Positions 15,307-33,724 of a DNA stretch of 64,000 nucleotides are shown one piece after another. The notes below the pieces were generated by a model that saw only the letters and a list, made by a program, of their open reading frames with translations, searched no databases and had not been told where the DNA came from. The first letter of the stretch is position 1, and each line of letters starts with the position of its first letter. The translations under genes and the position numbers were made by a program. Origin of the DNA: Aulosira sp. ZfuVER01 (lineage in GTDB: Bacteria; Cyanobacteriota; Cyanobacteriia; Cyanobacteriales; Nostocaceae). The stretch lies in contig JAVRCV020000008.1 of NCBI GenBank assembly GCA_034530615.2, positions 96,001 through 160,000 on the forward strand, given 5' to 3'.

Positions 15307-16218
15307 CTACTCTTTCACCGAGCAGACAGTTATTTGATAGAACGAAGCATCACTAAAAACAGAGCGATCGTAAGCTCCAAATTTCTTTTCTATTTTGAAT
15401 CCATTGTATCTTAGCAAAGCTTCTAGTTCTTGGGGAAAGTATAATCGATAAGTTATTTCTTCAATCCGTTCTTGTTCTTCTCCAACCAACTTAAAAAATA
15501 ACTTCGTCTTATAAATTTGCTGGGTTAGATTCAATTCATTAGATGCAGTAACTACTACTGTACCTTCTCCATCTGGATTAGGGTAAATTGAATAGAGATT
15601 TTTTTTAGGATCGAACAACATATCTAAGCTGGCTTTTGTAGCAGGATTAAGCATATCAATAACAAACTTTCCTCCTGGTTTTAAATGTTTCTTTACACAA
15701 GCAAAACAAGCCTCAACCGCTTCTATATCTAAAAGATGCCAAATACAATTGATGGGAAAAATAATCAGGTTAAACTTCTGAGCTAGATCGAAGTTTTGGA
15801 TATCAGCTTTTATCCATTCAACTTGAGCAGACTTCTTTCTAGCTAGTTCTAGCATTGAGTCACCAATATCAATTCCAGTTACTTGGAATCCTTTGTTAGC
15901 TAATGGTATAGCTATTCTACCTGTTCCGCAGCTTAACTCTAAAATTGGATCGCCGTATTGACTAGCCATGTCCAACCAGAAAGGAATATCTAAAGTCGTG
16001 ACATTAGGAACTGGACAATAGTTTTCGTAAATCAAATCGTAATGCCTACCTTCATAATGAAGATATTCCTTTTCTGGAAATATGAAGGAATTTTCTTTTT
16101 CTCTGTCTTTTGAACTTGCGAAGCTTGCATTTACTCGTGTTTCTAATTCATTACTCATTTGCTTTGCCCAACTTGCATCTACGGCAATTACAGGGTTCTT
16201 TACCAAGATAGACATCAT
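15307..16218 (-). CDS. Class I SAM-dependent methyltransferase (probable cluster tailoring enzyme)
   Basis: ILELSCGTGR, VTGIDIG, HLKPGGKFVID; co-oriented with the exporter, divergent from the NRPS. Confidence 0.88.
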   Translation of the reverse strand: MMSILVKNPVIAVDASWAKQMSNELETRVNASFASSKDREKENSFIFPEKEYLHYEGRHYDLIYENYCPVPNVTTLDIPFWLDMASQYGDPILELSCGTGRIAIPLANKGFQVTGIDIGDSMLELARKKSAQVEWIKADIQNFDLAQKFNLIIFPINCIWHLLDIEAVEACFACVKKHLKPGGKFVIDMLNPATKASLDMLFDPKKNLYSIYPNPDGEGTVVVTASNELNLTQQIYKTKLFFKLVGEEQERIEEITYRLYFPQELEALLRYNGFKIEKKFGAYDRSVFSDASFYQITVCSVKE

Positions 16219-17362: not shown

Positions 17363-20300
17363 ATGTTCAGTTACTTTCAAGATGCATCTATCCACCAGCT
17401 GTTTGAAGTTCAGGTTGAGCAATCACCTGATTCTATAGCGGTAGTATTTGAGGGAATAGAAAGTCACCTTCAAGTTTCTCACAGCGCTAACAGCTTTCTT
17501 ACCTACAAAGAGTTAAATGTCCGTGCCAATCAATTAGCGCATTACTTAAAAACTCTAGGCGTAGGGCCAGAAGTATTGGTGGGTATTTGTGTAGAGCGTT
17601 CCCTTGAGATGATTGTCGGGGTGTTAGCCATCCTCAAAGCAGGTGGTGCTTACCTTCCTCTTGACTCTAACTATCCTAAAGAGCGTTTGGCGTTCATGCT
17701 GGAAGACTCTCAAATTTCTGTTTTAATAACTCAGCAACGTTTCCTGGAATCTCTCCCTAGCAACACAGCACAAATAATTTGCTTAGATACAGATTGGACT
17801 GGAATTGCCGAACACAGCCAACAAAATCTTATTTGCGAAGTCACTTCAAACAATCTCGCTTATGTGATTTACACATCTGGATCTACAGGTAAACCAAAAG
17901 GTGTTTTAGTTCCACACGCCGGAGTTGGCAATTTAGCCAGAGAACAGATCCGCATCTTCGATGTCCAACCAGATAGCCGGGTTCTGCAATTTGCTTCCTT
18001 TAGCTTTGATGCGTCTGTTTCAGAAATTTTCATGGCATTGCTAGCAGGCGCAACGTTAGTTTTAGCAACACGGGACTCTTTAATGCCAGGAACGGGTTTG
18101 CTCAAGTTGTTACGCGAACAGCGAATTACGACAGTTACCTTACCTCCATCCGCCTTAGCTGTTCTACCCATACAAGAATTACCCGATTTGCGATCGCTCA
18201 TTGTTGCAGGCGAAGCCTGTCCCCCAGAACTGATTAACCGTTGGGCACCTGGCCGTCGCTTCTTCAACGCTTACGGCCCAACAGAAGCTACGGTTTGCAC
18301 AACAATTGCCGAATGCACTCCTAGTGTTAAAAAACCGTCTATTGGCTATCCGATTGCTAACAAGCAAGTTTATTTATTAGACGAACAGTTAGAACCTGTG
18401 CCTGTTGGTGTAGTTGGCGAGTTATATATTGGCGGGTTGGGTTTAGCAAAAGGCTATCTCAACCGACCGGAATTGACGGCAGAGAAGTTTATTTTGAAGA
18501 AGGCAGGGGGTTGGGGAGCAGAGGAGCAGGGGGGCAGAGGGGCGGAGGAGCCTGTCACTAGACTTTACAAAACTGGGGATTTAGCTCGTTACCTTCCTGA
18601 TGGTAGCCTGGAGTTTTTGGGACGCATTGACGAGCAAGTTAAAGTTCGGGGTTACAGAATTGAACTAGGTGAAATTGAAGCGGTAATTGGGCGACATCCA
18701 GGTGTGCAGCAAGCAGTCGCGATCGCACGCGAAGACGTACCGGGGCAGAATCGCTTAATTGCTTATGTCGTGCAAAATCCTGAGTACGAAGGTGAACCGG
18801 AACAAGTTGCCGATTTAGAGGCTGAGTTTATCTCCCAATGGCAAAGCGTTTCTGATGAAACTTACAAACAAACCACTGGCGATCGCGCATTCAATTTTGC
18901 TGGATGGAATAGCAGTTACACGGGTTTACCGATCCCAGAAGCACAAATGCGCGAATGGGTTGAGCAAACTGTGGCGCGAATTCAATCTTTGCAACCAAAC
19001 CAAGTTTTAGAACTCGGTTGCGGAACGGGGATGTTGATGTTCCGCATTGCACCACAGTGCAGCCTTTATTGGGGAACTGATTTTTCTCAACAAGTACTGG
19101 GCTATCTCCAACAACAATTGCAGCACCTAAAGTTACCGCAAATCAAGTTAGGACACCGCACGGCAGATAACTTTGCAGGTATTGAACCAGCCAGCTTTGA
19201 CACGGTAATTTTAAACTCGGTTAGCCAAAACTTCCCCAGCATCGACTATATGGTGCAAGTGATGTCAGGGGCAGTCAAGGCAGTGAAACCAGGCGGTCGC
19301 ATTTTTATCGGGGATGTTCGCAGTTTACCGTTGTTGGAGGCATACCACGCTTCCGTGCAGCTGTATCAAGCTCCCGATTCGCTAACACGAACGCAATTAC
19401 AAGAACAAGTGCGATCGCGTTTTGCCCAAGAAGAAGAACTCGTCATCGATCCTGGCTTTTTTCTCGCCTTGCAACAGCATTTTCCCGAAATTAGCCGGGT
19501 GCAAATTCAACTTAAACGCGGTGTTCATCACAATGAATTAACTCGCTTCCGCTATGATGTCACCCTCCACATCGGTAGCGAAGTTAGTTCCTCAGCTGAT
19601 ATCACTTGGTTAGACTGGCAACAGCAACAACTGACGTTACCAGCTCTCCGCCGATACCTCAGCGAAACTCAAACGGAGATTTTGGGATTGCGAGGTGTTC
19701 CAGATGCACGTTTAGCCACAGAAGTCAAGACTTTAGAATGGTTGGCGAGTGGGGATGGTGTTGAGACAGTTGAAGAGTTTCTTGCCCAGATATTGCCAAC
19801 CCTGGAAGGATGGGGAGTAGATCCAGAAGATCTGTGGGCATTGAGCGAAGACCTACCATACAACATCGATATCATTTGGTCTCTTGTTGCAGGCTTTTAC
19901 GATGTGGTGTTGCAGCGCCGAGATACCCCACCCCTCAAGGATAAAATTTTTGAGCATGAGGAAGGAGTGACCAATGACGGCAGTTGCTTCAAGCCGGGGA
20001 ACCCGTCCAACGCACTGCCTCCCCAATGCTCAATGACGGCAGTTACTACCACGGGCAGGCAGCCGTGTGGTGAGGCAGTCCGGTCTTGGGGGTTTCCCCC
20101 AGGAGGAACTGCCGAAAGGGTTTCCCGACTTGAGCCGACTGCCGTGGAAACCCCCACAACACACTGCCTCCCCAATGCCCAATGCCCAATGCCCCATGCC
20201 CATCTGTGGAATGCTTACGCCAACAATCCCCTGAAAAGTAAACTGGCTCGCAAGCTGATTCCCCAACTGCGGAGTTTCTTGCAAGAAAAGTTACCTGACT

Positions 20301-23300
20301 ATATGATGCCCGATCGCTTTCTGTTGTTGGATAGCTTGCCAATTACGCCCAACGGCAAAGTCGATTGCAAAGCACTACCAGCACCCGACGCAACTAGACC
20401 GGAATTGGCAGAAAACTTTGTGCTATCACGCACGCCCTTAGAAACAGAACTTACACAAATTTGGGCAGAAGTGCTGGGAATAGAACAAGTTGGCGTTCAA
20501 GACAACTTCTTAGAATTGGGCGGACAATCTTTACTTGCGATTCAGGTAGTTTCTCGTATCCGCGACAATTACCAGGTAGATTTGCCGATGCGATCGCTGT
20601 TCGACTCGCCCACCATCGCCCAACTTGCCCAACAAATCGAAAGCACTCAGAAAAATTCTAGTTTGCAAGTGCCTGGGATTGTTCCTGCTCCTCGGCATCA
20701 AAACATACCGCTTTCGTTTGCTCAACAGCGCTTCTGGTTCTTTGAACAATTAATTCCAGGTACTTCTTTATCTCATGAGTCTACCGAGCTACGTCTGCCT
20801 AATTTGCAGAATATAACAGCCTTAGAACGAAGTTTTAACGAAATTATCCGACGGCATGAAATTTGGCGCACTACCTTTGAAATGCTTGATGGGCAAGCGA
20901 TTCAAGTTATTCATCCCAACCTTTACATCCCCTTACCTGTTGTAGATTTGCAAGCACTTCCCACCGCCGAACGAGAAGCAGAAGCGTTACGGTTTACCAC
21001 CGAACAATCACAAACACCCTTTAACTTAACGCAATTACCTCTAATTCGAGCGATTTTATTCAAATTTAGCGAGACTGATTATCGTTTGTACATGACAATG
21101 CACCATATCATCTTTGATGGTTATTCTCTGTACAACGTCTTTTTGCCAGAATTAGCAGTACTTTACGAAGCCTTTTTTGAAGACAAACCTTCTCCATTAC
21201 CAGAATTATCGATTCAGTATGCAGACTTTGCATATTGGCAACGGCAATGGTTGCAAACAGAAATTCTCACGCCCCAACTGAATTACTGGAGAAACCAGCT
21301 TGCCAATCTTTCCATGTTGGAATTACCGACCGATCGTCCGCGTCCAGTAATGGAAACCTTCCGAGGTGCAAGACATTTAGTCAAGTTACCCAAACAATTG
21401 ACTGAGGAACTGAAGAAACTGAGTAGTCGTAAGGGAGTCACTTTGTTTATGACCTTGCTAGCCGGGTTTAAAACACTACTAGCGAGGTATGCCCAACAAG
21501 ATGATATTGCTGTAGGTACGCTACTTTCTGGAAGCAATCGCCCTGAAATAGCTGAATTAATTGGGATTGTAATTAATAACCTCGTCTTGCGAACAGACCT
21601 TTCCGGTAATCCCAGTTTCTCAGAACTACTCTTACGGGTACGAGAAACTACTTTAGGCGCTTATGCCAATCAAGACGTACCATTTCAAAAGTTAGTTGAA
21701 GTCCTGCGACCAGAACGCCACCTCAGTCATCATCCTTTATTTCAAGTATTGTTTATCCTAGAACCACCAGCATTAGTATTAGAGTCTGGCTGGAGTTTAC
21801 GTTCCTTAGTTGTAGATACAGGAACGTCAAATATGGATATAACGCTTTCACTGGGCGATCGCCCTGAAGGTTTAGAGGGCTACCTTGAGTACAACAGCGA
21901 TTTATTTGATGGCACAACCATTACTCGGATGGTTGGGCATTTCCAAACTCTATTACAAAACGTTGTTGCTAATCCCGAACAAAAACTTTCAGAGTTACCT
22001 TTACTAACACAAGCACAAAAGCAACAGTTGCAGCTTGAGAACGACACCCAGACCGATTATTCTCTGAATTTATGCTTGCATGAATTATTTGCCGCACAAG
22101 TCGAACGTTCTCACGATGCTGTTGCAGTAGTGTATGAAAATGAGCAGTTAACCTACCAAGAACTCAACGCTAGAGCAAATCAACTAGCACATTACCTACA
22201 AAAGCTAGGTGTAGGTAAAGAAGTACTAGTAGGAATTTTTGTCGAGCGTTCCCTTGATACGGTAATTGGCATATTGGCTATCCTGAAAGCGGGTGGTGCT
22301 TATGTACCGCTAGATCCCAGCTATCCACAAGAGCGATTAGCCTTTATCTTGCAAGATTCTCAAGTGTCTGTGTTGTTGACTCAGCAGCATTTGACGGAGA
22401 CTTTATCGCCACATCAAACCAGGATTATTTGCCTAGACACAGCTTGGGAAACAATCGCCAATGAAAGCCAAGAAAACTCGATCGGTGATTGTACAACTGA
22501 CAACCTCGCTTATATTATCTACACCTCAGGCTCAACGGGTAAACCCAAGGGTGTATTAGTAAATCACAGTAATGTAGTCCGCCTGTTCACAGCCACAGAA
22601 TCTTGGTATCACTATGATCAACAGGATGTCTGGACTCTTTTTCATTCGATTGCCTTTGATTTTTCAGTTTGGGAAATGTGGGGTGCTTTGCTATACGGTG
22701 GAAAGTTAGTAGTAGTACCGTATTTGATCGGTCGTTCACCCTCAGATTTCTATAAATTGTTGGTAACGCAGCAAGTTACAGTACTCAACCAAACACCTTC
22801 AGCTTTTACTCAACTGATACAAGCAGAGGAAGCTTTGGGAGTTGATAAAAAGCTGAGTTTGCGATTAGTGATTTTTGGTGGTGAAGCTTTAGAACTTCAG
22901 AGTTTAAAACCTTGGTTTGACAAGCATGGCGACCAAGTTCCCCAATTAGTGAATATGTACGGGATTACAGAAACAACTGTGCATGTGACTTATCGCCCAA
23001 TAGCGATCGCAGATTTAGAAGCAGGATTAGGAAGTGTTATTGGTCGTCCAATTCCTGACTTACAACTTCACTTACTAGATAGGTATCAGCAGCCAGTACC
23101 GATTGGAGTTATGGGTGAGATGTACATTGGTGGTGCTGGTGTAGCACGAGGTTATCTGAACCGCCCAGAACTAACTAACCAAAAGTTTATCCCCAATCCC
23201 TTTAGCAAAAAACTTAATGCACGCTTGTATCGTTCTGGTGACTTAGCCCGTTACTTACCCAATGGCGATATTGAATATTTAGGACGTATCGACCAGCAAG

Positions 23301-24292
23301 TGAAAATCCGTGGTTTCCGGATTGAACTGGGTGAAATTGAGGCGGTATTGAGCCAGCACCCAGATGTCCGGGAAGCAGTAGTTGTTGTGCAAGAAGAGAC
23401 AGGTGACAAGCGACTACTAGCTTATGTTGTCACTGCTCATTATCCAGAACGAGTGCCTTATCAAGTTGCTTGTCCGGTGGAATTTACTGGAAAAGGAACA
23501 GCCATTTTAGACACTGAGGATATCTCTAGCAGTGGAGTTTGTTTGGTCGGTGCTACTGATGTAGAACCGGGTCAGCCTGTCCGTCTGCGCCTACAAATAC
23601 CGGGTTCCCATGAGGAACGGTGGTTAGTGGGAAGTATTGCTTGGCAACAAGGAAATCGAGCCGGAATTCAACTTGACCTGACACCCGATTTGCAAGAGTT
23701 GTGGGAGCAAGGTGTCCATTATCTGCTGGAAACCCAAGGCTTTTTGAAAGTTTGGCAGCGCACGGTTAGTGCTAGCTTACGAGATTTTCTCAAGCAGAAG
23801 TTACCTCAGTACATGGTGCCTAACAGTTTTATTCTGCTGGATACTTTACCGCTGACTCCTAGTGGCAAAGTTGATCGTAGAGTCTTGCAGCAACAACGTT
23901 CTACAACCGTAGCACCACCAGCCAAGCCGGAATTAGAAGCAGAATTGGCATCACCTCGGAATGCGATCGAGCAGGTTGTGACTGATGTTTGGGCTGAAGT
24001 TCTGAAATGCGATCGCATCGGTATTCATGACAACTTCCTAGATTTGGGAGGACACTCGCTAATAGCAACGCAGGTGATTTCTCGATTACGCAATCTTTTT
24101 CAGGTGGAATTGCCTTTACGTTTGATGTTTGAGTCTCCCACTGTGGCGGAACTCGCAGCAGCAGTTGCTCAACTTCAAAACACTCCAGCAATTGCCCCAG
24201 AACCCGCTATTACATCAGTATCTCGTGCCGCGTATCGCATGAAGCGATCTGCCCTTAACAAAGGCACAGATGGAAATGGCAGCAAAGGATAA
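17363..24292 (+). CDS. NRPS 1: A(Tyr)[N-MT]-PCP-C-A(Thr)[PilZ-like insert]-PCP
   Basis: Two YTSGSTGKPKG motifs; specificity codes read by eye DASTIAAVCK (Tyr) and DFWNIGMVHK (Thr); N-MT LELGCGTG; HHIIFDG; PCP GGQSL and GGHSL. Confidence 0.95.
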   Translation: MFSYFQDASIHQLFEVQVEQSPDSIAVVFEGIESHLQVSHSANSFLTYKELNVRANQLAHYLKTLGVGPEVLVGICVERSLEMIVGVLAILKAGGAYLPLDSNYPKERLAFMLEDSQISVLITQQRFLESLPSNTAQIICLDTDWTGIAEHSQQNLICEVTSNNLAYVIYTSGSTGKPKGVLVPHAGVGNLAREQIRIFDVQPDSRVLQFASFSFDASVSEIFMALLAGATLVLATRDSLMPGTGLLKLLREQRITTVTLPPSALAVLPIQELPDLRSLIVAGEACPPELINRWAPGRRFFNAYGPTEATVCTTIAECTPSVKKPSIGYPIANKQVYLLDEQLEPVPVGVVGELYIGGLGLAKGYLNRPELTAEKFILKKAGGWGAEEQGGRGAEEPVTRLYKTGDLARYLPDGSLEFLGRIDEQVKVRGYRIELGEIEAVIGRHPGVQQAVAIAREDVPGQNRLIAYVVQNPEYEGEPEQVADLEAEFISQWQSVSDETYKQTTGDRAFNFAGWNSSYTGLPIPEAQMREWVEQTVARIQSLQPNQVLELGCGTGMLMFRIAPQCSLYWGTDFSQQVLGYLQQQLQHLKLPQIKLGHRTADNFAGIEPASFDTVILNSVSQNFPSIDYMVQVMSGAVKAVKPGGRIFIGDVRSLPLLEAYHASVQLYQAPDSLTRTQLQEQVRSRFAQEEELVIDPGFFLALQQHFPEISRVQIQLKRGVHHNELTRFRYDVTLHIGSEVSSSADITWLDWQQQQLTLPALRRYLSETQTEILGLRGVPDARLATEVKTLEWLASGDGVETVEEFLAQILPTLEGWGVDPEDLWALSEDLPYNIDIIWSLVAGFYDVVLQRRDTPPLKDKIFEHEEGVTNDGSCFKPGNPSNALPPQCSMTAVTTTGRQPCGEAVRSWGFPPGGTAERVSRLEPTAVETPTTHCLPNAQCPMPHAHLWNAYANNPLKSKLARKLIPQLRSFLQEKLPDYMMPDRFLLLDSLPITPNGKVDCKALPAPDATRPELAENFVLSRTPLETELTQIWAEVLGIEQVGVQDNFLELGGQSLLAIQVVSRIRDNYQVDLPMRSLFDSPTIAQLAQQIESTQKNSSLQVPGIVPAPRHQNIPLSFAQQRFWFFEQLIPGTSLSHESTELRLPNLQNITALERSFNEIIRRHEIWRTTFEMLDGQAIQVIHPNLYIPLPVVDLQALPTAEREAEALRFTTEQSQTPFNLTQLPLIRAILFKFSETDYRLYMTMHHIIFDGYSLYNVFLPELAVLYEAFFEDKPSPLPELSIQYADFAYWQRQWLQTEILTPQLNYWRNQLANLSMLELPTDRPRPVMETFRGARHLVKLPKQLTEELKKLSSRKGVTLFMTLLAGFKTLLARYAQQDDIAVGTLLSGSNRPEIAELIGIVINNLVLRTDLSGNPSFSELLLRVRETTLGAYANQDVPFQKLVEVLRPERHLSHHPLFQVLFILEPPALVLESGWSLRSLVVDTGTSNMDITLSLGDRPEGLEGYLEYNSDLFDGTTITRMVGHFQTLLQNVVANPEQKLSELPLLTQAQKQQLQLENDTQTDYSLNLCLHELFAAQVERSHDAVAVVYENEQLTYQELNARANQLAHYLQKLGVGKEVLVGIFVERSLDTVIGILAILKAGGAYVPLDPSYPQERLAFILQDSQVSVLLTQQHLTETLSPHQTRIICLDTAWETIANESQENSIGDCTTDNLAYIIYTSGSTGKPKGVLVNHSNVVRLFTATESWYHYDQQDVWTLFHSIAFDFSVWEMWGALLYGGKLVVVPYLIGRSPSDFYKLLVTQQVTVLNQTPSAFTQLIQAEEALGVDKKLSLRLVIFGGEALELQSLKPWFDKHGDQVPQLVNMYGITETTVHVTYRPIAIADLEAGLGSVIGRPIPDLQLHLLDRYQQPVPIGVMGEMYIGGAGVARGYLNRPELTNQKFIPNPFSKKLNARLYRSGDLARYLPNGDIEYLGRIDQQVKIRGFRIELGEIEAVLSQHPDVREAVVVVQEETGDKRLLAYVVTAHYPERVPYQVACPVEFTGKGTAILDTEDISSSGVCLVGATDVEPGQPVRLRLQIPGSHEERWLVGSIAWQQGNRAGIQLDLTPDLQELWEQGVHYLLETQGFLKVWQRTVSASLRDFLKQKLPQYMVPNSFILLDTLPLTPSGKVDRRVLQQQRSTTVAPPAKPELEAELASPRNAIEQVVTDVWAEVLKCDRIGIHDNFLDLGGHSLIATQVISRLRNLFQVELPLRLMFESPTVAELAAAVAQLQNTPAIAPEPAITSVSRAAYRMKRSALNKGTDGNGSKG
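19976..20200. repeat. In-frame nested small dispersed repeats plus cccaatg heptamers inside NRPS 1
   Basis: 20074-20134 is the reverse complement of 56427-56487 (59/61 identical); cccaatg repeats at 20171-20200. Confidence 0.85.
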
Positions 24293-24303: not shown

Positions 24304-27300
24304 ATGATACACAAGCTTCCTAACAACTCCTATGGGACTGGTGAAAATTCTTTGGCTGCTGATGAGGAAGAAGTCTTTGTTTTTCCTCTCTCCTTTGCCC
24401 AACAACGGTTGTGGTTTCTCGACCAGTTGATTCCCAACAGTCCAATTTACAACATTCCCGGTGCTGTACAATTCCAAGGACGATTGGATCGGGTGGCTCT
24501 TGAAAAGAGTTTTAGCGAAATCGTTCGTCGCCACGAAGCTCTGCGAACCACCTTTGTAATTGCAGATGGTCAACCCATGCAAGCTGTAGCTGCTGTGGAA
24601 CAAGACTCTAACCTACAGCGTTACTACTCGTTGCAAGAAATAGACCTCAGCCACTTAAGCGAACCAAACCGCCAGACGGAAATCGCAAGACTGGCAACCG
24701 CAGGAGCTAGACAACCATTTAACTTAGAACAAGAGCCGCTACTGCGAGTTACGCTTTTATGTCTTAGCGAACAGGAGTACATCTTCCTCACTACGATACA
24801 TCACATCATCTCCGATGGTTGGTCGCTGAGTATGTTCATGCGGGAATTGATGGCACTTTACCATGCTTTTTCCCAAGGACAGCCCTCACCTCTTCTCGAC
24901 CTCCCCATCCAATACGCAGACTTTGCTCTCTGGCAGCGAGAGTGTTTGCAAGGCGAACTCCTCACCAGTAAACTCGCTTATTGGCAGCGACAACTTGCTG
25001 GTTCTTTACCCGTGCTGCAACTCCCCACCCAAAGAACGCGGCCCGCTGTTCAGTCTTTTCTGGGGGCGCGACAAACGTTCGCCCTATCCTCAAAGTTCGC
25101 TGAGGCGCTGAAGTCCTTCGCTCGTCAGGAAAGCGTAACTGTGTTTATGACGCTGCTGACAGCGTTCAAAACCTTACTTTACCGCTACACCGGACAGGAA
25201 GACATTTTAGTCGGTTCGCCCGTTGCTAATCGTCAACGTCCTGAACTCGAAGGGTTGATGGGCTTTTTTGTCAATACTTTGGTGTTGCGAACTGACCTAT
25301 CTGGCAATCCGTCGTTTAGAGAATTGCTGACTAGAGTACGGGAAGTAACCCTAGAAGCTGACGCTCACCAAGATGTGCCTTTCGAGAAACTGGTAGAAGC
25401 ACTGCAAATTGAACGCGAACTGAGTCGAAATCCCCTGTTCCAAGTCGCCTTTGTCATTGCGCCCCCGATGCCAGTCCTAACTCCACCGTGGAGTTACTGC
25501 CAGTTAGATATGGATACGGGTACAGCAAAGTTCGATTTGACGCTGGCAATAGAGGAAAGACCAGAGGGTTTTATCTGTGCGTTTGAATATAGCACCGATT
25601 TGTTTGAGGCAGATGCGATCGCTCGGATGGTCGGACATTTCCAGACTTTGCTCGCAGGTATCCTTGCTAACCCAGACCAGTGCATTGGTGAGTTACCCTT
25701 GCTAACTGCATCTGAGTGGCAGCAGATGCAGTCTTGGAATCAAACCCAAGTTGATTATCCCCAAGGGTGCATTCATCAGCTATTTGAGGCACAGGTTGAG
25801 AAAAATCCCGATGCGGTGGCTATGGTTTTTGGAGAGCAGCAATTAACCTACCGCGAACTGAATACCAAAGCCAATCAACTCGCGCATTACCTACAAAGCC
25901 TTGGTGTTGGGCCAGAAGTATTGGTGGGGATTTGCGTTGAGCGATCGCTCTATACCTTAATCGGCATCTTGGGCATTTTCAAAGCAGGTGGTGCATACTT
26001 GCCACTCGATCCCGCTTATCCTGCCGAACGTTTGGCATTCATGTTAGAGGATGCTCAAGTTCCGGTGCTGCTAACTCAGCATTCATTAGGTATCGAGCGA
26101 ACACACCGCCAATCATTACAAAAGACAACCATCGTTCATCTAGACAATTGGCAGGCAAATACTGATGGTGAGGAAAACCCTGTTTCTGGTGTCACTTCTG
26201 ATAACCTAGCCTATACAATCTACACTTCTGGCTCTACAGGCAAACCTAAAGGTGTTCTGCTGACACATCACGGGCTGTGCAATCTAGCTAAAGCACAGCA
26301 GCAGCTTTTCAACGTGCAGCCAAACCACCGTGTTTTGCAATTTGCATCCCTCAGTTTTGATGCTTCTATTTGGGAAATTGTCATGGCTTGGGTAGGTGGT
26401 GCCACCATTGTTCTAGCCCAGCAGGACGATTTGCTTCCAGGTAATACTTTGCTGAAGTTGTTGCGCGACCAGCAGATCGCAATTGTTACCTTGCCTCCCT
26501 CAGCTCTAGCAGTTTTGCCAGCAGCGGAACTTCCTGATTTGCAGACAATTATCGTTGCGGGAGAAGCTTGTCCTCCTGAGCTAGTAAAACGTTGGGCACC
26601 TGGTCGTCGTTTCTTCAATGCTTACGGCCCAACGGAAAGCACTGTCTGTGCCACTGTTGCTGAATGTAACCCAGGCGATCAAAAGTTACCCATTGGTTAT
26701 CCAATTGCGAATACCCAGGTTTACATACTTGACGCTAACCTACAGCCTGTTCCTGTTGGCGTTCCTGGTGAAATATACATTGCTGGAGTTGGGTTAGCAC
26801 GCGGCTACCTCAATCGACCTGAATTGACGGCAGAGAAGTTTATTTTGAAGAAGGCAGAGGGAGCAGGGAGCAGGGAGCAGGGGAGTCACCTCGATCTTGG
26901 GGTTTCACGCCACTCCCCTCAAGTCGGTAGACCCGCCCACGGGGGTGGCTCCCCAAGTAGAGCAAGTGGCGTAGCAGGGGGAGAATTCCTAACTCCTCAC
27001 TCCTCACTCCTCACTCAGTACTCAGGACTCAGGACTCAGCACTCACAGGAGCGTCTGTATAAAACTGGCGACTTAGCTCGTTATCTTCCTAATGGTAATA
27101 TAGAATACCTTGGACGCATTGATAATCAAGTAAAAATTCGCGGTTTCCGAATTGAACTGGGTGAAATTGAGACGGTTGTGAGCCAGCATCCAGATGTCAA
27201 GGAAGCGATCGCCATAGCACGAGAAGACTTATCAGGTGACAAGCGGCTGGTTGCTTATATTGTCTGGCAGCCGAAACCGAATCGGGTGCCTTATGAAAGC

Positions 27301-28098
27301 GAGTGTTTGGCAGAATTGGACGGCTACGGAACAGTGCAACTCCAAACTGAGGATATCTCCGTTGGTGGTGCTTGCTTGGTAGGAGTACCAGAGATGTCTG
27401 TCACTCAGCACCTCCGCTTGTGTCTGACATTACCAGGTACAACTGAAGCTCAGTGGTTTTCTGGAAAAATCGTTTGGCAAGAAGGAACGAAAGCGGGGAT
27501 TCAATTTCAGGTTTCACCATCCGAGCAAGCAGTTTTAAATCAAAGTGTTGAGTATCTGCTCAAAACAGGAGGCTTTTTAAAAGTTCTGCAACGCACTGCT
27601 GTTGAGAGCTTGCGAAGCTTTCTTAAACAGAAGTTACCTGACTATATGATGCCTTCTAGCTTTGTGTTTCTTGATACCCTACCTCACACCCCAAATGGCA
27701 AGGTGGATCGCAAGAAACTTCCCGCACCAGAGAATTTGCGATCGCAATTAAACACCAGCTATACCGCACCCCAGACGGAGATAGAGCAAGCGATCGCTTC
27801 AGTTTGGCAACAAGTTCTGCAAGTGGACAAAGTCGGATTGCACGATAATTTCTTCGACTTGGGCGGTCATTCTCTGCGGATGGCGCAAGTTCATACTCAG
27901 TTGTGCGGGGTATTGCAGCAAAAAATCTCGATGGTGGAACTGTTTCAATATCCTACGGTGAGTGCCTTGGCTAAACACTTAAGCCAGGAAAACGAAGCAC
28001 AACCCACTTTTGCACAAAGCCATCAACGCGCCAACAAGCAAAAAGAAGCCCTGCATCTACAAAAGCAAAGAATGCAAAGGAAGAAGGAAAATGGATAA
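24304..28098 (+). CDS. NRPS 2: C-A(Phe)[PilZ-like insert]-PCP
   Basis: LSFAQQRLWFL, HHIISDGWS, YTSGSTGKPKG, code DAWTIAAVCK (Phe), PCP GGHSL; RBS aaggag upstream. Confidence 0.95.
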   Translation: MIHKLPNNSYGTGENSLAADEEEVFVFPLSFAQQRLWFLDQLIPNSPIYNIPGAVQFQGRLDRVALEKSFSEIVRRHEALRTTFVIADGQPMQAVAAVEQDSNLQRYYSLQEIDLSHLSEPNRQTEIARLATAGARQPFNLEQEPLLRVTLLCLSEQEYIFLTTIHHIISDGWSLSMFMRELMALYHAFSQGQPSPLLDLPIQYADFALWQRECLQGELLTSKLAYWQRQLAGSLPVLQLPTQRTRPAVQSFLGARQTFALSSKFAEALKSFARQESVTVFMTLLTAFKTLLYRYTGQEDILVGSPVANRQRPELEGLMGFFVNTLVLRTDLSGNPSFRELLTRVREVTLEADAHQDVPFEKLVEALQIERELSRNPLFQVAFVIAPPMPVLTPPWSYCQLDMDTGTAKFDLTLAIEERPEGFICAFEYSTDLFEADAIARMVGHFQTLLAGILANPDQCIGELPLLTASEWQQMQSWNQTQVDYPQGCIHQLFEAQVEKNPDAVAMVFGEQQLTYRELNTKANQLAHYLQSLGVGPEVLVGICVERSLYTLIGILGIFKAGGAYLPLDPAYPAERLAFMLEDAQVPVLLTQHSLGIERTHRQSLQKTTIVHLDNWQANTDGEENPVSGVTSDNLAYTIYTSGSTGKPKGVLLTHHGLCNLAKAQQQLFNVQPNHRVLQFASLSFDASIWEIVMAWVGGATIVLAQQDDLLPGNTLLKLLRDQQIAIVTLPPSALAVLPAAELPDLQTIIVAGEACPPELVKRWAPGRRFFNAYGPTESTVCATVAECNPGDQKLPIGYPIANTQVYILDANLQPVPVGVPGEIYIAGVGLARGYLNRPELTAEKFILKKAEGAGSREQGSHLDLGVSRHSPQVGRPAHGGGSPSRASGVAGGEFLTPHSSLLTQYSGLRTQHSQERLYKTGDLARYLPNGNIEYLGRIDNQVKIRGFRIELGEIETVVSQHPDVKEAIAIAREDLSGDKRLVAYIVWQPKPNRVPYESECLAELDGYGTVQLQTEDISVGGACLVGVPEMSVTQHLRLCLTLPGTTEAQWFSGKIVWQEGTKAGIQFQVSPSEQAVLNQSVEYLLKTGGFLKVLQRTAVESLRSFLKQKLPDYMMPSSFVFLDTLPHTPNGKVDRKKLPAPENLRSQLNTSYTAPQTEIEQAIASVWQQVLQVDKVGLHDNFFDLGGHSLRMAQVHTQLCGVLQQKISMVELFQYPTVSALAKHLSQENEAQPTFAQSHQRANKQKEALHLQKQRMQRKKENG
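26845..27048. repeat. In-frame STRR plus nested dispersed-repeat insertion inside the NRPS 2 A domain
   Basis: gggagca heptamers, hairpin element acgccact...gtggct, ctcctca/actcagg heptamers; encodes about 65 extra residues between EKFI and RLYKTGD. Confidence 0.8.
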
Positions 28099-31000
28099 TC
28101 TACAAACAAGCGAAGCTTTAGAAGGAATTGCCATTGTGGGAATGGCTGGGAGATTTCCAGGTGCGAAAAATGTGGATGAATTTTGGCAGAATCTCCAGAA
28201 CGGTGTAGAGTCCATTTCTGTTTTCTCCGAGCAAGAATTGGCAGAAGCTGGTATCGATCCGGCAGTATTACAGAATCCTGACTACGTTAAAGCCAAAGCA
28301 GTTTTAGACGATATCGATTTATTTGATGCAGCTTTCTTTGGCTTTAGTGCCAAAGAAGCCACCATTACCGATCCCCAACATCGCTTATTTTTAGAATCTG
28401 CTTGGGAAGCACTGGAAAATGCAGGTTACAACCCAGAAACATACACAGGTGCAATTGGAGTGTATGCAGGGGTAGGGATGAGTGCCTATCTATTAAATAA
28501 TCTTTTTACAAATCCTGAATTAACCCGTTCAGCTGGGGCTTATCAAACTTTAATCGCCAACGATAAAGACTTTTTACCTACTCGCGTTTCTTATAAACTC
28601 AACCTCAAAGGCCCAAGCGTTAATATTCAAACTGCTTGCTCAACTTCCTTAGTCGCTACTTGTATAGCCTGCCAAAGCTTGCTGAACTATCAATGCGATA
28701 TGGCTTTAGCAGGAGGTGTTTCCATTAGCTTGCCGCAAAAATCAGGATATTTGTACCAAGAAGGCATGATTTTTTCACCTGATGGTCATTGTCGAGCTTT
28801 TGATGCCCAAGCACAGGGAATCGTGGCGGGAAGTGGAGTCGGAATTGTTGTTTTAAAACGATTAGAAGATGCGATCGCAGATGGTGATACTATTCATGCT
28901 GTCATTAAAGGCTTTGCTGTAAACAATGATGGCTCGATGAAAGTAGGTTACACTGCTCCCAGCGTCGAGGGTCAAGCAGAAGCGATCGCTCAAGCTTTGG
29001 CAATGGCGGAAGTCGATCCAGAAAGCGTAACTTATATCGAAGCTCACGGTACGGGAACACCCTTAGGCGATCCCATTGAAATTGCCGCACTTACAAAAGC
29101 CTTTCGCGCTAGCACCCAGAAAACGAACTTTTGTGCCATTGGTTCGGTGAAAACAAATATCGGACATTTAGATACAGCAGCTGGGGTTACTGGTTTAATT
29201 AAGACTGTTCAGGCGCTGAAACACCAGTCCATACCACCCAGTTTGCACTTTGAAACTCCAAATCCGAAAATTGATTTTGCCAACAGTCCTTTTTACGTTA
29301 ATCACAAACTCACTGAATGGCACAAAAATGGCAGTCCTCGCCGTGCTGGTGTGAGTTCGTTTGGTATTGGTGGGACAAATGCTCACGTTGTTTTAGAAGA
29401 AGCAACATCTTTAAAAGAGCAGAGGGGGAGAGAGGCAGAGGGGCAGGGGAGAAATTATCAGATATTGGTAGTTTCAGCCAAGTCTGAATCTGCAATTAAC
29501 ACAGCTACAGAGAATTTAATTGCACATTTAAAACAGCATCCCGAACTAAATTTAGCTGATGTTGCTTATACACTTGCTTTTGGTCGTAAGGCTTTCAACC
29601 ATCGCCGGATAGTTGTTTGTAGCAATTTGGAAGAAGCGGTAACAGCGCTTTCTCGACTCAATCAGCGAGTTTTTACTAATAATCAAGAATCTAAACAACA
29701 AGCTATAACATTCATGTTTTCTGGGCAAGGTTCGCAATATGTGAACATGGCGTTGGAACTTTATCAAGTTGAACCAATATTTCGCCAACAAATAGATAAA
29801 TGCTCGGAACTCCTTAAACCTGATTTAGGATTAGATTTACGCGATGTTTTGTATCCCAGTGAAGCACAAACAGAAATCGCCACACAACAATTAAAGCAAA
29901 CAGCAATTACACAACCAGCCTTATTTGTCATTGAGTACGCTTTAGCGCAATTATGGATGTCTTGGGGTGTGCGTCCTCAAGCCTTAATTGGGCATAGTAT
30001 TGGTGAATATGTTGCCGCCTGTATTGCTGGTGTATTCTCCTTAGAAGATGCTTTATCGCTGGTTGCGGCGCGGGGACGACTAATGCAGCAAATGCCTGCA
30101 GGAGCCATGTTAGCTGTACCTTTAACAGAAACAGAAGCGCGATCGCACCTCAACAATAACCTGTCTCTAGCAGTCATCAATGCTCCTTCCAGTTGTGTCA
30201 TTGCAGGTACGATTGCAGAGATAGATGCTTTAGCACAACAGTTACCAGAAAGTCGTCGCTTACATACTTCTCATGCGTTCCATTCGCAAATGATGGAACC
30301 TATTTTAGAACCCTTCATTGAGCGTGTTGGGAAGGTAAAACTGAATCCCCCACAAATTCCTTATATTTCTAACGTCACAGGAACTTGGATTACCACCGCC
30401 GAAGCGACGAACCCCAACTATTGGGCGCAACATTTGCGTCAAACGGTACGCTTTGCTGATGGCTTAGAAAAGTTGATGCAAGATCCTCACCAAATTCTTT
30501 TAGAAGTTGGGCCTGGAAGAACACTGATGACACTCGCTAAACAGCATCCTTATCATGATGCAGCGGTAATTCTTTCTTCCTTACGCCATCCCCAAGAGCA
30601 AGAATCAGATGTGGAATTTTTGTTAACTACTCTAGGACGACTTTGGCTGGCGGGTGTAGAAATTGATTGGTCAGAATTTTATACTGGCGAACAGCGTTAC
30701 CGCGTACCGTTGCCAACTTATCCTTTTGAACGTCAGCGTTACTGGGTTGAACCGCAAGCATTACTACCAGTACAAAAGGCTGCTAACTCTTTCACTAAAA
30801 AACCGGATATTGCTGACTGGTTCTATATTCCTTCTTGGCAACGTTCACCTATTCTGGGGGACAATGATAGCCTTGCTAAGGAGCGTTTTTGTTGGTTGGT
30901 GTTTGTAGATGAGTGCGGTTTAGGCGATCGCATTATCAAGCAACTAGAACTTGCAGGTCAAGATGCGATCGCTGTCAGGATTGGAGAGCATTTTAGCAAG

Positions 31001-33724
31001 GAACGCCCCTACAGCTACACACTCAATCCCTCACAGCGCCAAGACTACGAGACTTTATGGCAAGAATTAAAAGCACTAAACAAGCTGCCACAAACCATCG
31101 TTCATTTGTGGAGTGTTACCTCTGATGAGTTTGAAGAAGGCAGGAGGCAGGAGGCAGGAGGCAGAAGGGATAATTCAGATGTAAATATTTCGATTCCCGC
31201 AGAATTAGCGCCAGGCAAAGTTGCTGTTTATTCAAACCCTTACTCCCTTGTGTCTGGGCAAACAGATTGTAAGCCTTCTGCCACGCCACTTGCTACAACG
31301 GAGGGAATCTCCGCAACGCAGTGGCTCCTCTGCCCTCTGCCCTCTGCCTTTCTTATTGAACGAGTAGAAAAGTTGCAAAATTTAGGCTTCTGGAGTTTAC
31401 TGTTTTTAGCCCAGGCATTAGGAAAACAAAACATCAGCGATCGCCTACAAATTGCAGTCATTTCTAACAATTTACAAGAAGTGACGGGTGAAGAGAATCT
31501 ATGTCCAGAGAAAGCAACTCTACTTGGAACCTGTAAAGTTATTCCTCACGAATATCTCAATATTTCTTGTCGCAGTATTGATATAGTTCTGCCCAAACCT
31601 GGAAGTCAGCAAGCAGAGAAATTAGTTAACAATTTGCTGACAGAACTAACTGTTCAAACCTCAGATATGGCGATCGCTTATCGCGGTAATCATCGTTGGG
31701 TACAAACCTTTGCACCCGTCCGACTAGAACGAACTGAAAAAGCAACACCCCAGTTAAGAGATGGGGGAGTTTACTTAATTACAGGAGGATTAGGCGGTAT
31801 TGGTTTAGTTTTGGCAGAATATCTTGCAAAGACGGTACAAGCGAAATTGGTATTGGTTGGGCGATCGCCTTTTCCCGCATCATCTGAGTGGGAACAATGG
31901 CTGAGTACTCACGATCCACAAGATAGCGTCAGTGTCAAGATTCGCCAATTGCAGGACATGGAAGCGTTAGGTGCAGAGGTGGTGCTCGCCTGTGCCGATG
32001 TTGCGAACTTACAACAAATGCAAGGGGTGATTCGTGAAGTATGCGATCGCTTCGGTCAAATTCACGGTGTCATTCATGCTGCGGGTGTGATGCCAGGAGG
32101 AATGATCCAACTGAGGACACCGGAAGCGATCGCTAATCTGCTAGCGCCGAAAGTAACGGGGACTTTGGTATTAGATACTTTACTTCAGGATGGCGATTTA
32201 GATTTCTTTGTTCTGTGTTCATCGCTCAATTCCTTTCTTGTAGGATTGGGACTAGTCGATTATTGCGCTGCAAATTCCTTTTTAGATGCCTTTGCTAACT
32301 ATAAAGCTTCTCGCTCCAATATCTTTACAACTGCAATTAACTGGGACGGTTGGCAAGAGGTTGGACAAGCCGCTAACGTTAAACTCTCCGAACAACTCCA
32401 ACAATGGCGTGATGCCAATTTCCAACAAGGTATCTTATCTCAAGAAGGAGTAGAGGCGTTTAAGCGCATCTTAGACAGTAGGTTGCCGCAAGTTATAGTA
32501 TCAACTCAGGATTTTCTTTCTCGGTTCGAGCAGTTTAACGCAACTAAAGAATTGCAACATCTGCAATCTCAGCCACAGGCGAACTCATCTAAACCTACTC
32601 ATTCCCGACCGCAATTGAGCCAGGCTTATGTTGGACCTCGCAATCAATTAGAGGAGACTATAGCCCAAATTTGGCAACAATCTTTAGGAATTGAGCCAAT
32701 CGGCATTGACGATGACTTCTTTGAATTGGGAGGTGATTCTTTACTTGCAGTGCATTTAATCGCCAAAATTAGCGCCGCTACCCAAACAAAGTTATCATCC
32801 CATAGCCTACTCGACGCACCGACGATTGCAGACTTAGCTGAATTAATTACTCAAAATGCCTCGCCATCTCAACTAGCTAATGGACAAGCAAAGCCAGAGT
32901 TACCTTCAACCCTAGTAGAAATTCAGTCTGGTAGTTCTAAGCCGCCGCTTTTCCTCATCCATCCTGTTGGCGGTCACGTCTACGTCTATCGCGATTTAGC
33001 TCAATATTTAGGCTCAGACCAACCTGTTTATGGATTGCAGGCACAAGGTATTGATGGTAAAACTCCTCCTCTAACTAAAGTTGAGGAAATGGCAACTCAA
33101 TATCTTGAAGCACTGCGCGTTGTCCAACCGCATGGGACTTACTTTCTCGGTGGGTCCTCTTTTGGCGGAACCATCGCCTATGAAATGGCACAGCAACTCC
33201 AAGCGCAAGGGGAAAAAGTAGGGTTGCTTTTCCTCATAGATACTCCTAGTCTCGGTCATATGCCGTCAGAAAATATTGAAGATGATGGCATCAAAATCAT
33301 GTCTTATGCCTTGGGTGTAGGTGCTAATGTTCCTGTATCTATAGAATATCTGCGACAACTAAGTACCGATGAGCAACTGCACTACTTTTTGCAGCAAGGA
33401 AAAACAGCGTTGAAAATGCCTGCTGATTTTGGCTTAAGCGAGTTGCATCTTTACTACAATCTGTTCAAAATCAACACTAAAGCGATGCGAAATTATATAC
33501 CGCAAGCTTATCCAGGTCGCGTCATCTTTTTTAAAGCCAGCGATCGCGATTCCTTCAACCCCCAAAACCCAGAACTCGGTTGGCAAGATTTGGCAATGGC
33601 AGGGTTAGAAATCCACGAAGTTCCTGGTAATCACATTACAATGAACTTCCCACCACAAGTCCAAGTTATGGCTAAGTTGTTAAGGATATATCTGGAGAGC
33701 GATCCACAAAAACAAAACTTTTAA
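28091..33724 (+). CDS. Type I PKS module KS-AT(malonyl)-KR-ACP-TE
   Basis: TACSTS, EAHGTGT, NIGHL (KS); GHSIG and HAFHS (malonyl AT); GGLGGIG and YCAAN (KR); GGDSL (ACP); GSSFG and GNH (TE); ATG 28091 overlaps the NRPS 2 stop. Confidence 0.95.
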   Translation: MDNLQTSEALEGIAIVGMAGRFPGAKNVDEFWQNLQNGVESISVFSEQELAEAGIDPAVLQNPDYVKAKAVLDDIDLFDAAFFGFSAKEATITDPQHRLFLESAWEALENAGYNPETYTGAIGVYAGVGMSAYLLNNLFTNPELTRSAGAYQTLIANDKDFLPTRVSYKLNLKGPSVNIQTACSTSLVATCIACQSLLNYQCDMALAGGVSISLPQKSGYLYQEGMIFSPDGHCRAFDAQAQGIVAGSGVGIVVLKRLEDAIADGDTIHAVIKGFAVNNDGSMKVGYTAPSVEGQAEAIAQALAMAEVDPESVTYIEAHGTGTPLGDPIEIAALTKAFRASTQKTNFCAIGSVKTNIGHLDTAAGVTGLIKTVQALKHQSIPPSLHFETPNPKIDFANSPFYVNHKLTEWHKNGSPRRAGVSSFGIGGTNAHVVLEEATSLKEQRGREAEGQGRNYQILVVSAKSESAINTATENLIAHLKQHPELNLADVAYTLAFGRKAFNHRRIVVCSNLEEAVTALSRLNQRVFTNNQESKQQAITFMFSGQGSQYVNMALELYQVEPIFRQQIDKCSELLKPDLGLDLRDVLYPSEAQTEIATQQLKQTAITQPALFVIEYALAQLWMSWGVRPQALIGHSIGEYVAACIAGVFSLEDALSLVAARGRLMQQMPAGAMLAVPLTETEARSHLNNNLSLAVINAPSSCVIAGTIAEIDALAQQLPESRRLHTSHAFHSQMMEPILEPFIERVGKVKLNPPQIPYISNVTGTWITTAEATNPNYWAQHLRQTVRFADGLEKLMQDPHQILLEVGPGRTLMTLAKQHPYHDAAVILSSLRHPQEQESDVEFLLTTLGRLWLAGVEIDWSEFYTGEQRYRVPLPTYPFERQRYWVEPQALLPVQKAANSFTKKPDIADWFYIPSWQRSPILGDNDSLAKERFCWLVFVDECGLGDRIIKQLELAGQDAIAVRIGEHFSKERPYSYTLNPSQRQDYETLWQELKALNKLPQTIVHLWSVTSDEFEEGRRQEAGGRRDNSDVNISIPAELAPGKVAVYSNPYSLVSGQTDCKPSATPLATTEGISATQWLLCPLPSAFLIERVEKLQNLGFWSLLFLAQALGKQNISDRLQIAVISNNLQEVTGEENLCPEKATLLGTCKVIPHEYLNISCRSIDIVLPKPGSQQAEKLVNNLLTELTVQTSDMAIAYRGNHRWVQTFAPVRLERTEKATPQLRDGGVYLITGGLGGIGLVLAEYLAKTVQAKLVLVGRSPFPASSEWEQWLSTHDPQDSVSVKIRQLQDMEALGAEVVLACADVANLQQMQGVIREVCDRFGQIHGVIHAAGVMPGGMIQLRTPEAIANLLAPKVTGTLVLDTLLQDGDLDFFVLCSSLNSFLVGLGLVDYCAANSFLDAFANYKASRSNIFTTAINWDGWQEVGQAANVKLSEQLQQWRDANFQQGILSQEGVEAFKRILDSRLPQVIVSTQDFLSRFEQFNATKELQHLQSQPQANSSKPTHSRPQLSQAYVGPRNQLEETIAQIWQQSLGIEPIGIDDDFFELGGDSLLAVHLIAKISAATQTKLSSHSLLDAPTIADLAELITQNASPSQLANGQAKPELPSTLVEIQSGSSKPPLFLIHPVGGHVYVYRDLAQYLGSDQPVYGLQAQGIDGKTPPLTKVEEMATQYLEALRVVQPHGTYFLGGSSFGGTIAYEMAQQLQAQGEKVGLLFLIDTPSLGHMPSENIEDDGIKIMSYALGVGANVPVSIEYLRQLSTDEQLHYFLQQGKTALKMPADFGLSELHLYYNLFKINTKAMRNYIPQAYPGRVIFFKASDRDSFNPQNPELGWQDLAMAGLEIHEVPGNHITMNFPPQVQVMAKLLRIYLESDPQKQNF
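31133..31354. mobile_element. In-frame MITE-like insertion in the PKS (inverted ggcagga/ctctgcc heptamer ends, internal hairpin repeat)
   Basis: gaagaaggcaggaggcagg... and ...ctctgccctctgcctttctt; internal 31283-31327 matches 56382-56426. Confidence 0.7.

Follow-up and report, generated by a model that had tools for sequence, protein, structure and literature searches.

Organization of the locus

The stretch of DNA analysed here (the window) covers 64,000 nucleotides of Aulosira sp. ZfuVER01 (contig JAVRCV020000008.1, positions 96,001-160,000), and all coordinates below are counted within it. It encodes an assembly line of two nonribosomal peptide synthetase (NRPS) genes and a terminal polyketide synthase (PKS) gene, in which all three adenylation (A) domains are interrupted between the motifs a8 and a9. 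The A domain of module 1 carries a methyltransferase at this site, and those of modules 2 and 3 each carry a PilZ domain.

A PilZ domain inside the adenylation domain of module 2

The insert of module 2 comprises 113 residues, which read HYPERVPYQVAC...TEDISSSGVCL...GSIAWQQGNRAGIQL...SAS in translation, and lies in frame within the 2309-residue open reading frame (ORF) of gene 1, between ...DKRLLAYVVTA and LRDFLKQKLPQYMVP. Searched alone, it matched the Pfam PilZ family (PF07238) with an E-value of 3.7e-10 and 40.5 bits, above the gathering cut-off of 22.5 bits, and its residues 4-87 aligned with profile positions 6-94 of 102. The corresponding match in the whole protein covers residues 2029-2112 at 34.0 bits. 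PilZ is the only Pfam family found in the insert, with no match to a tailoring domain of the methyltransferase (M), ketoreductase (KR) or oxidase (Ox) type. The NCBIfam models yielded a sub-threshold match to TIGR02266, a PilZ-like paralog family, and nothing more.

The surrounding motifs, located by regular expressions, place the insert in the loop between a8 and a9. In module 2, a8 (residue 1974) stands 39 residues ahead of the insert, a9 (residue 2147) 8 residues past it, and a10 (residue 2167) comes next. The layout of an interrupted A domain was found, with a8 39-42 residues upstream and a9 8-11 residues downstream, and both PilZ-bearing A domains retain a3, a5, a7, a8, a9 and a10, together with the GGHSL motif of the thiolation (T) domain and its intact serine. 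The ANL-family models of NCBIfam match the small C-terminal subdomain of module 2, the lid, in two pieces, leaving about 110 residues where the model has about 10; for example, positions 394-450 and 461-499 of the DltA model correspond to residues 1-55/56 and 167-205 of the equivalent stretch. In addition, the borders of the insert (after ...AYVV and before LRxFLxxKLPxYMxP) are those of the methyltransferase insert in module 1. An earlier note on this DNA had claimed about 113 extra residues in the A8-A9 loop, their PilZ identity and a site shared with catalytic inserts, including that of module 1. The translation with its flanking motifs, the Pfam match and the identical borders agree with these three points in turn.

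Predicted fold of the insert

The structure of the insert was predicted by AlphaFold2 from a 33-row alignment drawn from the window and public loci. The model revealed six strands followed by a helix at residues 86-102, which is the six-stranded beta-barrel with C-terminal helix of PilZ domains, at a predicted local distance difference test (pLDDT) score of 87.0 and a predicted template modelling (pTM) score of 0.78. A Foldseek search of the Protein Data Bank (PDB) with this model returned 26 matches at E <= 0.001. Those listed are all PilZ domains, namely BcsA, K. xylinus CeSA PilZ, MapZ, MotI, PA0012, Alg44 and VCA0042, with weaker E-values for YcgR, MrkH and PlzA; the best are BcsA (9b8v_E, E 1.2e-5), 4i86 and Alg44 (4rt0). 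When the lid was modelled together with the insert, the lid's own elements were kept on both sides of the barrel (pLDDT 87.6, pTM 0.62), and we read this pTM as two well-folded predicted domains of less certain mutual orientation.

The fold search was required to settle the fold, because sequence searches of the PDB gave only weak or chance matches. With phmmer, the insert alone found a chance-level match among the PDB sequences (2imr, E 0.25), and the family profile gave a weak match to the Xanthomonas PilZ proteins at E 0.003-0.006, covering half a domain (profile positions 36-84). The earlier note had recognized the PilZ barrel pattern and named a model without a barrel as grounds for rejecting it; the barrel is predicted, and its structural matches are PilZ domains. 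Judged by the Pfam match and the model, the insert is a real PilZ-family domain with a predicted PilZ fold.

The second insert and the assembly line

A second PilZ domain, overlooked by the earlier note, was found at the same a8-a9 site in gene 2 (residues 994-1079; Table 1), likewise above the Pfam cut-off. Based on sequence and modelling, the a8-a9 loop of the A lid contains a PilZ barrel in both module 2 and module 3, predicted to be folded and to have no catalytic function. Identity between the two inserts is 48%, or 52% when the lid is included, and named Nostocales genomes contain separate orthologues of either insert at 74-91% identity; the two are therefore, as sequence comparison indicates, old paralogues and not a recent copy.

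The nine pocket residues extracted are DFWNIGMVH for module 2 and DAWTIAAVC for module 3, and DASTIAAVC was read by hand for module 1; we take these codes to be Thr, Phe-like and Tyr-like, respectively. Thr had been proposed before for module 2. The extracted residues fit it, and the assignment of the code to Thr is the part that we presume. The methyltransferase matches of module 1 fall between a8 (residue 420) and a9 (residue 977), and a3, a5, a7 and a10 are likewise present in this A domain. The listed TTG start of the PKS ORF produces an 89-base overlap with the end of gene 2 (28010-28098), and the true start lies probably further downstream. The three divergent genes next to the assembly line probably belong to the cluster, as their position suggests.

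Table 1. Features of the assembly line and its surroundings in window coordinates. C, condensation; KS, ketosynthase; AT, acyltransferase; ACP, acyl carrier protein; TE, thioesterase; SAM, S-adenosylmethionine.
Feature	Position	Strand	Basis
NRPS gene 1, 2309 residues, A(methyltransferase insert)-T-C-A(PilZ insert)-T	17363..24292	+	Pfam AMP-binding x2, Condensation, PP-binding x2, methyltransferases, PilZ
Module 1 a8-a9 insert, class I SAM methyltransferase	18770..20266 (approximate limits)	+	Methyltransf_12/25/31/11, residues 528-668
a8 motif of module 2, GRIDQQVKIRGFRI	23282..23323	+	Regular expression, residue 1974
PilZ insert of module 2, barrel and C-terminal helix; HxxxR, DISSSG	23438..23776	+	Pfam, AlphaFold2, Foldseek
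a9 (LPQYMVP) and a10 (SGKVD) of module 2	23801..23875	+	Regular expressions, residues 2147, 2167
NRPS gene 2, 1264 residues, C-A(PilZ insert)-T	24304..28098	+	Pfam Condensation, AMP-binding, AMP-binding_C, PilZ, PP-binding; motifs a3-a10
PilZ insert of module 3; PxxxR, DISVGG	27262..27606	+	Pfam, 33.6 bits
PKS gene 3, KS-AT-KR-ACP-TE, last of the line	28010..33724	+	Pfam ketoacyl-synt, Acyl_transf_1, KR, PP-binding, Thioesterase
Divergent SAM methyltransferase	15307-16218	-	Pfam
Divergent ABC ATPase	14307-15251	-	Pfam
Divergent ABC-2 permease	13528-14310	-	Pfam
Short tandem repeats	18515-18551, 20171-20202, 26858-26882, 26987-27045, 29419-29446, 31135-31168, 31327-31348

Distribution of the insert

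When 1.84 billion representative sequences were searched by HMMER, using just the insert as the query, 106 proteins were recovered at E <= 0.001, 57 of them at E <= 1e-10. The local insert match was recovered in 103 of the 106, adjoins recognisable a8, a9 or a10 motifs in 79, and belongs to proteins of at least 700 residues in 81. The spacing is strikingly fixed across the family, a8 preceding the insert by about 42 residues and a9 following it after about 10. Two or three barrels stand in tandem within one insert in 26 of the representatives. The family profile, used in a word-indexed search, gave a list of 68 proteins, and 66 of these have precomputed matches to PF07238 and to NRPS families. 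Judged from these searches, the inserts belong to a conserved, NRPS-specific PilZ subfamily.

The hosts are mostly filamentous cyanobacteria (Nostoc, Mojavia, Amazonocrinis, Aerosakkonema, Microcoleus, Kamptonema, Argonema and Laspinema) and Beggiatoaceae, the large sulfur bacteria being represented by Ca. Parabeggiatoa, Ca. Marithrix, Thioploca and Ca. Halobeggiatoa; further Gammaproteobacteria, such as Aquicella, also occur. Orthologous inserts at 80-91% identity were found in three named genomes. The related loci came from a search seeded by a 5-row alignment, whose two peptide patterns favour close relatives among the loci found. The earlier note had regarded the presence of the insert in many characterised NRPSs as a reason to give up its claim. 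Many NRPSs do carry the insert, but none of the 68 listed proteins is named as a characterised synthetase, the names being either generic or assigned automatically ('amino acid adenylation domain-containing protein', 'non-ribosomal peptide synthetase' and one automatic 'Linear gramicidin synthase subunit').

Among 22 proteins with several A domains, the insert is present in only some A domains in 16 and in all of them in four, so an insert in every module was rejected as a general rule. Up to three PilZ inserts per protein were found in Microcoleus. Orphan lid-PilZ units occur at seven loci of Microcoleus, Kamptonema and Argonema and in four proteins. In these, a complete A(PilZ) module leads into a truncated T domain (...DDNLLD), and the sequence continues without a break from halfway through a8 (IELGEIE...). 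The A core is missing from this second part, which consists of another lid, a PilZ domain belonging to it and a T domain. The lysine of a10 is gone in some of these copies (NGELD, NGTVD).

Conservation and substrate independence

The ratio of nonsynonymous to synonymous substitution rates (dN/dS) of the insert against three orthologous clusters is 0.22, 0.10 and 0.13, compared with 0.23, 0.13 and 0.09 for the upstream lid and 0.12, 0.14 and 0.19 for the downstream stretch from a9 to the T domain. These values indicate that the insert is under purifying selection in the same range as its flanks. Alignments of 18 and 33 rows revealed conserved positions at R8, T29, S33, G36, P58, W72 and G79. 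R8 is invariant in the 18 rows, and Thr-Glu-Asp-Ile-Ser-x-x-Gly, Pro, Trp, Gly and the helix YLLETQGFLK are also conserved. The surface motif residues Arg, Asp, Ser and Trp are kept despite an overall identity of 30-50%.

The insert is not tied to one substrate, since the PilZ-bearing A domains display 46 different nine-residue pocket codes among 65. With no common substrate of the host A domains, a residue-specific tailoring role is therefore disfavoured, and it was rejected as a candidate on this ground.

Comparison of gene 1 with its orthologue from Nostoc sp. T09 yielded 80-98% identity nearly throughout. However, identity drops to 24-42% at about 22463-23063 (residues 1701-1900), the pocket part of module 2, with the anchors FDFSVWE and NMYGITE in the window against FDVSVWE and NLYGPTE in Nostoc sp. 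T09. The lid, the PilZ insert and the T domain of module 2 are 88-91% identical. The difference looks like a swap of the pocket subdomain that spared the PilZ-bearing lid, presumably between a Thr-type pocket in the window and a Ser-type pocket in Nostoc sp. T09. An insert that stays with the lid while the substrate pocket is exchanged would be of use for engineering.

Cyclic di-GMP motifs of single and tandem inserts

The PilZ fold is the classic receptor of bacteria for the signal molecule cyclic dimeric guanosine monophosphate (c-di-GMP). In the accessible part of a preprint by Galperin and Chou (10.1101/814665), the canonical c-di-GMP site is composed of RxxxR and [D/N]hSxxG, and PilZ relatives that do not bind c-di-GMP have lost these motifs. 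Both window inserts consist of a single barrel, different from the YcgR-like tandems, and both retain the second motif, as DISSSG in module 2 and DISVGG in module 3; its Ser and Gly are invariant and its Asp nearly so. With this motif and a full predicted barrel, they also differ from the non-binding Xanthomonas type, in which both motifs are lost and the barrel is incomplete.

The 106 representatives contain 84 single inserts, of which 75 are evaluable after removal of 9 partial ones. The combination of xxxxR with [D/N]xSxxG is found in 52 of these, the Arg only in 14, both complete motifs in six and neither in three; [D/N]xSxxG is kept in 58 and the Arg in 72. The departures from the second motif visible in the alignment are conservative (DIC..G, EIS..G), and at the position of the first Arg Leu is the usual residue, Pro following two positions further on. 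Absence of the first Arg is a family-wide trait of single inserts in these alignments and not a local accident. In the tandem inserts, at least one barrel has the full motif set in 17 of 26. Mostly this is the second one, whose RRxxxR stands in the linker in the manner of YcgR. In one tandem group it is the first barrel (SDRIVDR), so that the border to the A domain does not preclude a full RxxxR.

A quickly computed tree has no root and leaves 62 of its 113 branches unresolved, and no order of events was drawn from it. One of its clades comprises 87 rows, among them 69 of 76 single inserts and 14 of 19 first domains of two-domain tandems. The second barrels of such tandems fall in the other clade in 13 of 17 cases, and the split has 96% support in the Shimodaira-Hasegawa-like approximate likelihood ratio test (SH-aLRT).

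The genome of Aulosira sp. ZfuVER01 contains 22 GGDEF matches and three PilZ matches. Two of the latter are those in the NRPS, and the third belongs to a BcsA-like cellulose synthase (L040, 1196-3802) with the canonical motifs RLQRR and NISETG. Alignment of the family profile with this BcsA-like PilZ by hhalign covered 24 columns around the second motif with a probability of 1% and placed this motif of the inserts opposite NISETG, which shows the motif register only.

Other features of the window and of related loci

A 1863-residue protein with the architecture Ser/Thr-kinase-AAA_16-GAF-HisKA-HATPase is encoded at 4565-10156, about 7 kb upstream of the cluster. At six PilZ-NRPS loci of Microcoleus or Kamptonema, the region immediately upstream encodes the C-terminal end of a GAF-HisKA-HATPase_c kinase. 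The adjacency may be coincidental, such kinases being common in cyanobacteria. Nine Microcoleus-type loci contain an O-methyltransferase of the Methyltransf_2 type with a dimerisation domain, and the window has instead the divergent class I methyltransferase of Table 1.

Between the kinase and the cluster, 10619-13309 encodes an 896-residue fusion of an N6/N4 DNA methylase domain with an Mrr-type restriction endonuclease domain. At 35739-41040, three consecutive HMA_2 genes encode a 229-residue protein, a PAP2 phosphatase fusion and a 1060-residue P-type cation ATPase. Tandem repeats of heptamers or octamers (e.g. CCCAATG, TCCTCAC and AGGGAGC; Table 1) lie in frame in the NRPS and PKS genes and encode low-complexity stretches such as GAEEQGGRGAEE and GEFLTPHSSLL. 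We take them to resemble the short tandem repeats of heterocystous cyanobacteria, and they look to be tolerated in surface loops. Residues 851-950 of gene 1 are 14-18% identical to the Nostoc sp. T09 orthologue, with flanks at about 90%.

Proposed function of the inserts

The small C-terminal subdomain of A domains is a lid that rotates between the adenylation and the thiolation states. We propose, at a probability of roughly one in three, that the PilZ insert is a ligand-responsive, sensory handle on this rotating lid. The invariant Arg and Trp and the [D/N]hSxxG turn would together form the conserved face to which a small ligand binds. As the most promising candidate we consider c-di-GMP or another nucleotide related to it, which would be held in a non-canonical way since the first Arg is missing. 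Upon binding, the packing of the barrel on the lid or the core would be altered and lid rotation biased, and amino-acid loading might be raised or lowered at two successive modules. The tandem YcgR-like inserts, usually with full RRxxxR and [D/N]xSxxG, would represent the clear-cut c-di-GMP-responsive form of the same device. In its full form the proposal is somewhat more tentative still: a nucleotide second messenger, c-di-GMP or a relative, would bind straight to the PilZ barrels of two consecutive lids and switch loading on or off post-translationally, module by module, through a new one-arginine binding mode that is possibly completed by lid residues. The output of the line would thereby follow the signal that governs the lifestyle of the cell.

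The PilZ identity and predicted fold of the insert, the intact lid elements and core motifs of the host A domains and the purifying selection speak for the proposal. A ligand site is favoured because Arg, Asp, Ser, Gly and Trp are retained under strong constraint, whereas the known non-binding PilZ relatives have lost them. Since 17 of the 26 tandem inserts contain a canonical domain, the insert class as a whole appears tied to c-di-GMP, and the diversity of pocket codes argues for a generic regulatory rather than a residue-specific role. The 22 GGDEF matches together with the canonical BcsA-like PilZ indicate that c-di-GMP is made by this genome.

Several observations weigh against this proposal. 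The window inserts have HYPER (module 2) and PKPNR (module 3) in place of RxxxR, with the second Arg alone present, and the first Arg is absent in 66 of the 75 evaluable single inserts. The earlier note had already called the motif of module 2 degenerate, and module 3 follows the same pattern. Loss of either Arg of RxxxR normally abolishes c-di-GMP binding, as in mutants of Alg44, BcsA and YcgR. Because a full RxxxR can exist at the same junction, the absence of the first Arg looks selected, which argues against canonical c-di-GMP binding. In the quick and poorly resolved tree the single inserts fall together with the first tandem domains, most of which are degenerate, and not with the canonical second ones, and the best PDB sequence match of the family profile, a weak one over half a domain (E 0.003), is the non-binding Xanthomonas PilZ. 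In addition, a gene-neighbourhood link to c-di-GMP enzymes was looked for and not found: GGDEF and EAL domains are absent from the 17 window ORFs scanned and from the 36/62 neighbour ORFs of related loci scanned, and the GGDEF matches of the genome closest to the window are about 40 kb and 55 kb away from it. The allosteric gating by c-di-GMP suggested in the earlier note is not shown by these observations. The first Arg is missing, and no GGDEF or EAL gene is linked in the ORFs scanned; most of the tandem inserts (17 of 26) and the genome's own BcsA-like PilZ keep the canonical motifs, whereas the window inserts do not. Judged by the motifs, the signalling reading of the single-barrel inserts, though attractive, is only half supported, and c-di-GMP control appears considerably more likely for the tandem inserts elsewhere than for those of the window.

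Nearly as likely as a ligand-responsive handle is a ligand-independent adaptor, in which c-di-GMP binding has been lost and the barrel provides a protein-protein contact on the lid that organises or localises the line. Its partner might be a protein in trans, a complex of the membrane or of export, or a different region of the synthetase, such as the PilZ domain of the neighbouring module. The incomplete RxxxR, in both inserts and family-wide in single ones, is consistent with such a role, as is the weak best sequence match to the Xanthomonas PilZ proteins, which bind partners and not c-di-GMP. Conserved hydrophobic residues, those of L-x-P in the linker ahead of the Arg and those of the helix YLLETQGFLK, could be contact surfaces, and an orphan lid-PilZ unit without an A core is kept in Microcoleus. 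The presence of the insert in both A domains with a free a8-a9 site, and up to three times per protein in Microcoleus, would fit a line-wide scaffold, but only some A domains carry it in 16 of the 22 multi-A-domain proteins. Furthermore, no conserved candidate partner gene was found beside the loci scanned, and the known non-binding PilZ relatives have also lost [D/N]hSxxG according to the accessible part of the preprint 10.1101/814665, whereas it is kept here.

It is unlikely that the single insert is a vestige, the surviving first half of an ancestral YcgR-like tandem kept only for folding of the lid and with no current role. The grouping of single inserts with first-position tandem domains would agree with this, as would the fact that most tandems have their canonical site in the second domain, to which nothing corresponds in the window inserts, but the tree is unrooted and gives no direction of change. 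A vestige is also hard to reconcile with the conserved surface Arg, Asp, Ser and Trp, and with a dN/dS of the insert as low as that of the catalytic flanks. A short loop suffices at this site in uninterrupted A domains, in line with the ten or so positions of the ANL models. Modification of the loaded residue by a catalytic insert like M, KR or Ox is very improbable. The site is that of the catalytic inserts (accessible parts of PMC8341866 and PMC11355689), but all fold matches are receptor domains, and the host A domains share no common substrate. We know of no catalytic activity of the PilZ fold. Chance similarity or an assembly artefact, in favour of which nothing was found, can practically be dismissed: two independent inserts score above the curated Pfam cut-off, the fold is predicted with confidence, orthologues exist in three named genomes and the search returned 106 representative clusters. 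These last two explanations, together with others not named here, jointly keep a share of the probability slightly larger than that of the vestige.

Relation to known systems and significance

Similar to the a8-a9 interrupted A domains of McyA, PchF, KtzH and TioS, module 2 contains a whole foreign domain inside a complete A domain, and module 1 of the same protein is a classical a8-a9 interruption with identical boundaries. However, the inserts of the interrupted A domains described in the accessible parts of PMC8341866 and PMC11355689 are all catalytic (M, KR, Ox), whereas a receptor-type beta-barrel is found here. The former, the catalogue of Lundy, Mori and Garneau-Tsodikova (2020), comprises seven families, all with methyltransferase inserts, and the latter, a 2024 review of A domains, names M, Ox and KR inserts only; the word 'PilZ' does not occur in the accessible text of either. 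Conversely, 'adenylation', 'AMP-binding' and 'synthetase' do not occur in the accessible text of the PilZ domain survey (10.1101/814665). A full-text search, with subscription journals and supplements outside its scope, found no publication on PilZ domains in NRPS A domains. The co-mentions of PilZ with adenylation or nonribosomal that were checked referred to an author surname, and c-di-GMP in an NRPS structure preprint was an entry of the reference list. The earlier note knew of no description of a PilZ domain at A8-A9, and this holds within the searchable full-text literature. The PilZ-type interruption of NRPS A domains is real, conserved, widespread and apparently unreported.

Among PilZ proteins, BcsA and Alg44, the best structural matches, likewise have a PilZ barrel built into a biosynthetic machine and share [D/N]hSxxG. 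They are terminal fusions that bind c-di-GMP through a full RxxxR, whereas the window inserts are nested within another domain and have xxxxR. The tandem a8-a9 inserts of the relatives resemble the two-barrel switches YcgR and PlzD, with RRxxxR in the linker between the barrels, and mirror the xPilZ-PilZ logic described in the accessible part of the preprint 10.1101/814665. In contrast, the window inserts are single and resemble the first, mostly degenerate barrel of the tandems. The PilZ proteins of the Xanthomonas type IV pilus (XC1028/XAC1133; 3cnr, 3dsg, 4f48), the best though weak sequence match in the PDB, have no functional RxxxR and act via protein partners. They have lost both motifs and part of the barrel (10.1101/814665, accessible part), whereas the window insert keeps [D/N]hSxxG and a full predicted barrel.

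Interrupted A domains have so far been known only as carriers of extra chemistry, and the insert extends this theme with a non-catalytic, receptor-type domain. With such a domain at a8-a9, an NRPS module would for the first time be seen to contain a sensory or adaptor element of its own, and direct post-translational control of nonribosomal synthesis would become experimentally testable. The family provides natural comparators in the half-motif single barrels, the full-site tandem barrels and the orphan lid-PilZ units. For c-di-GMP biology, the genome contrasts its many GGDEF matches with no more than three recognisable PilZ domains, of which this enzyme contains two; the proposal, if true, would add a new output class in filamentous cyanobacteria.

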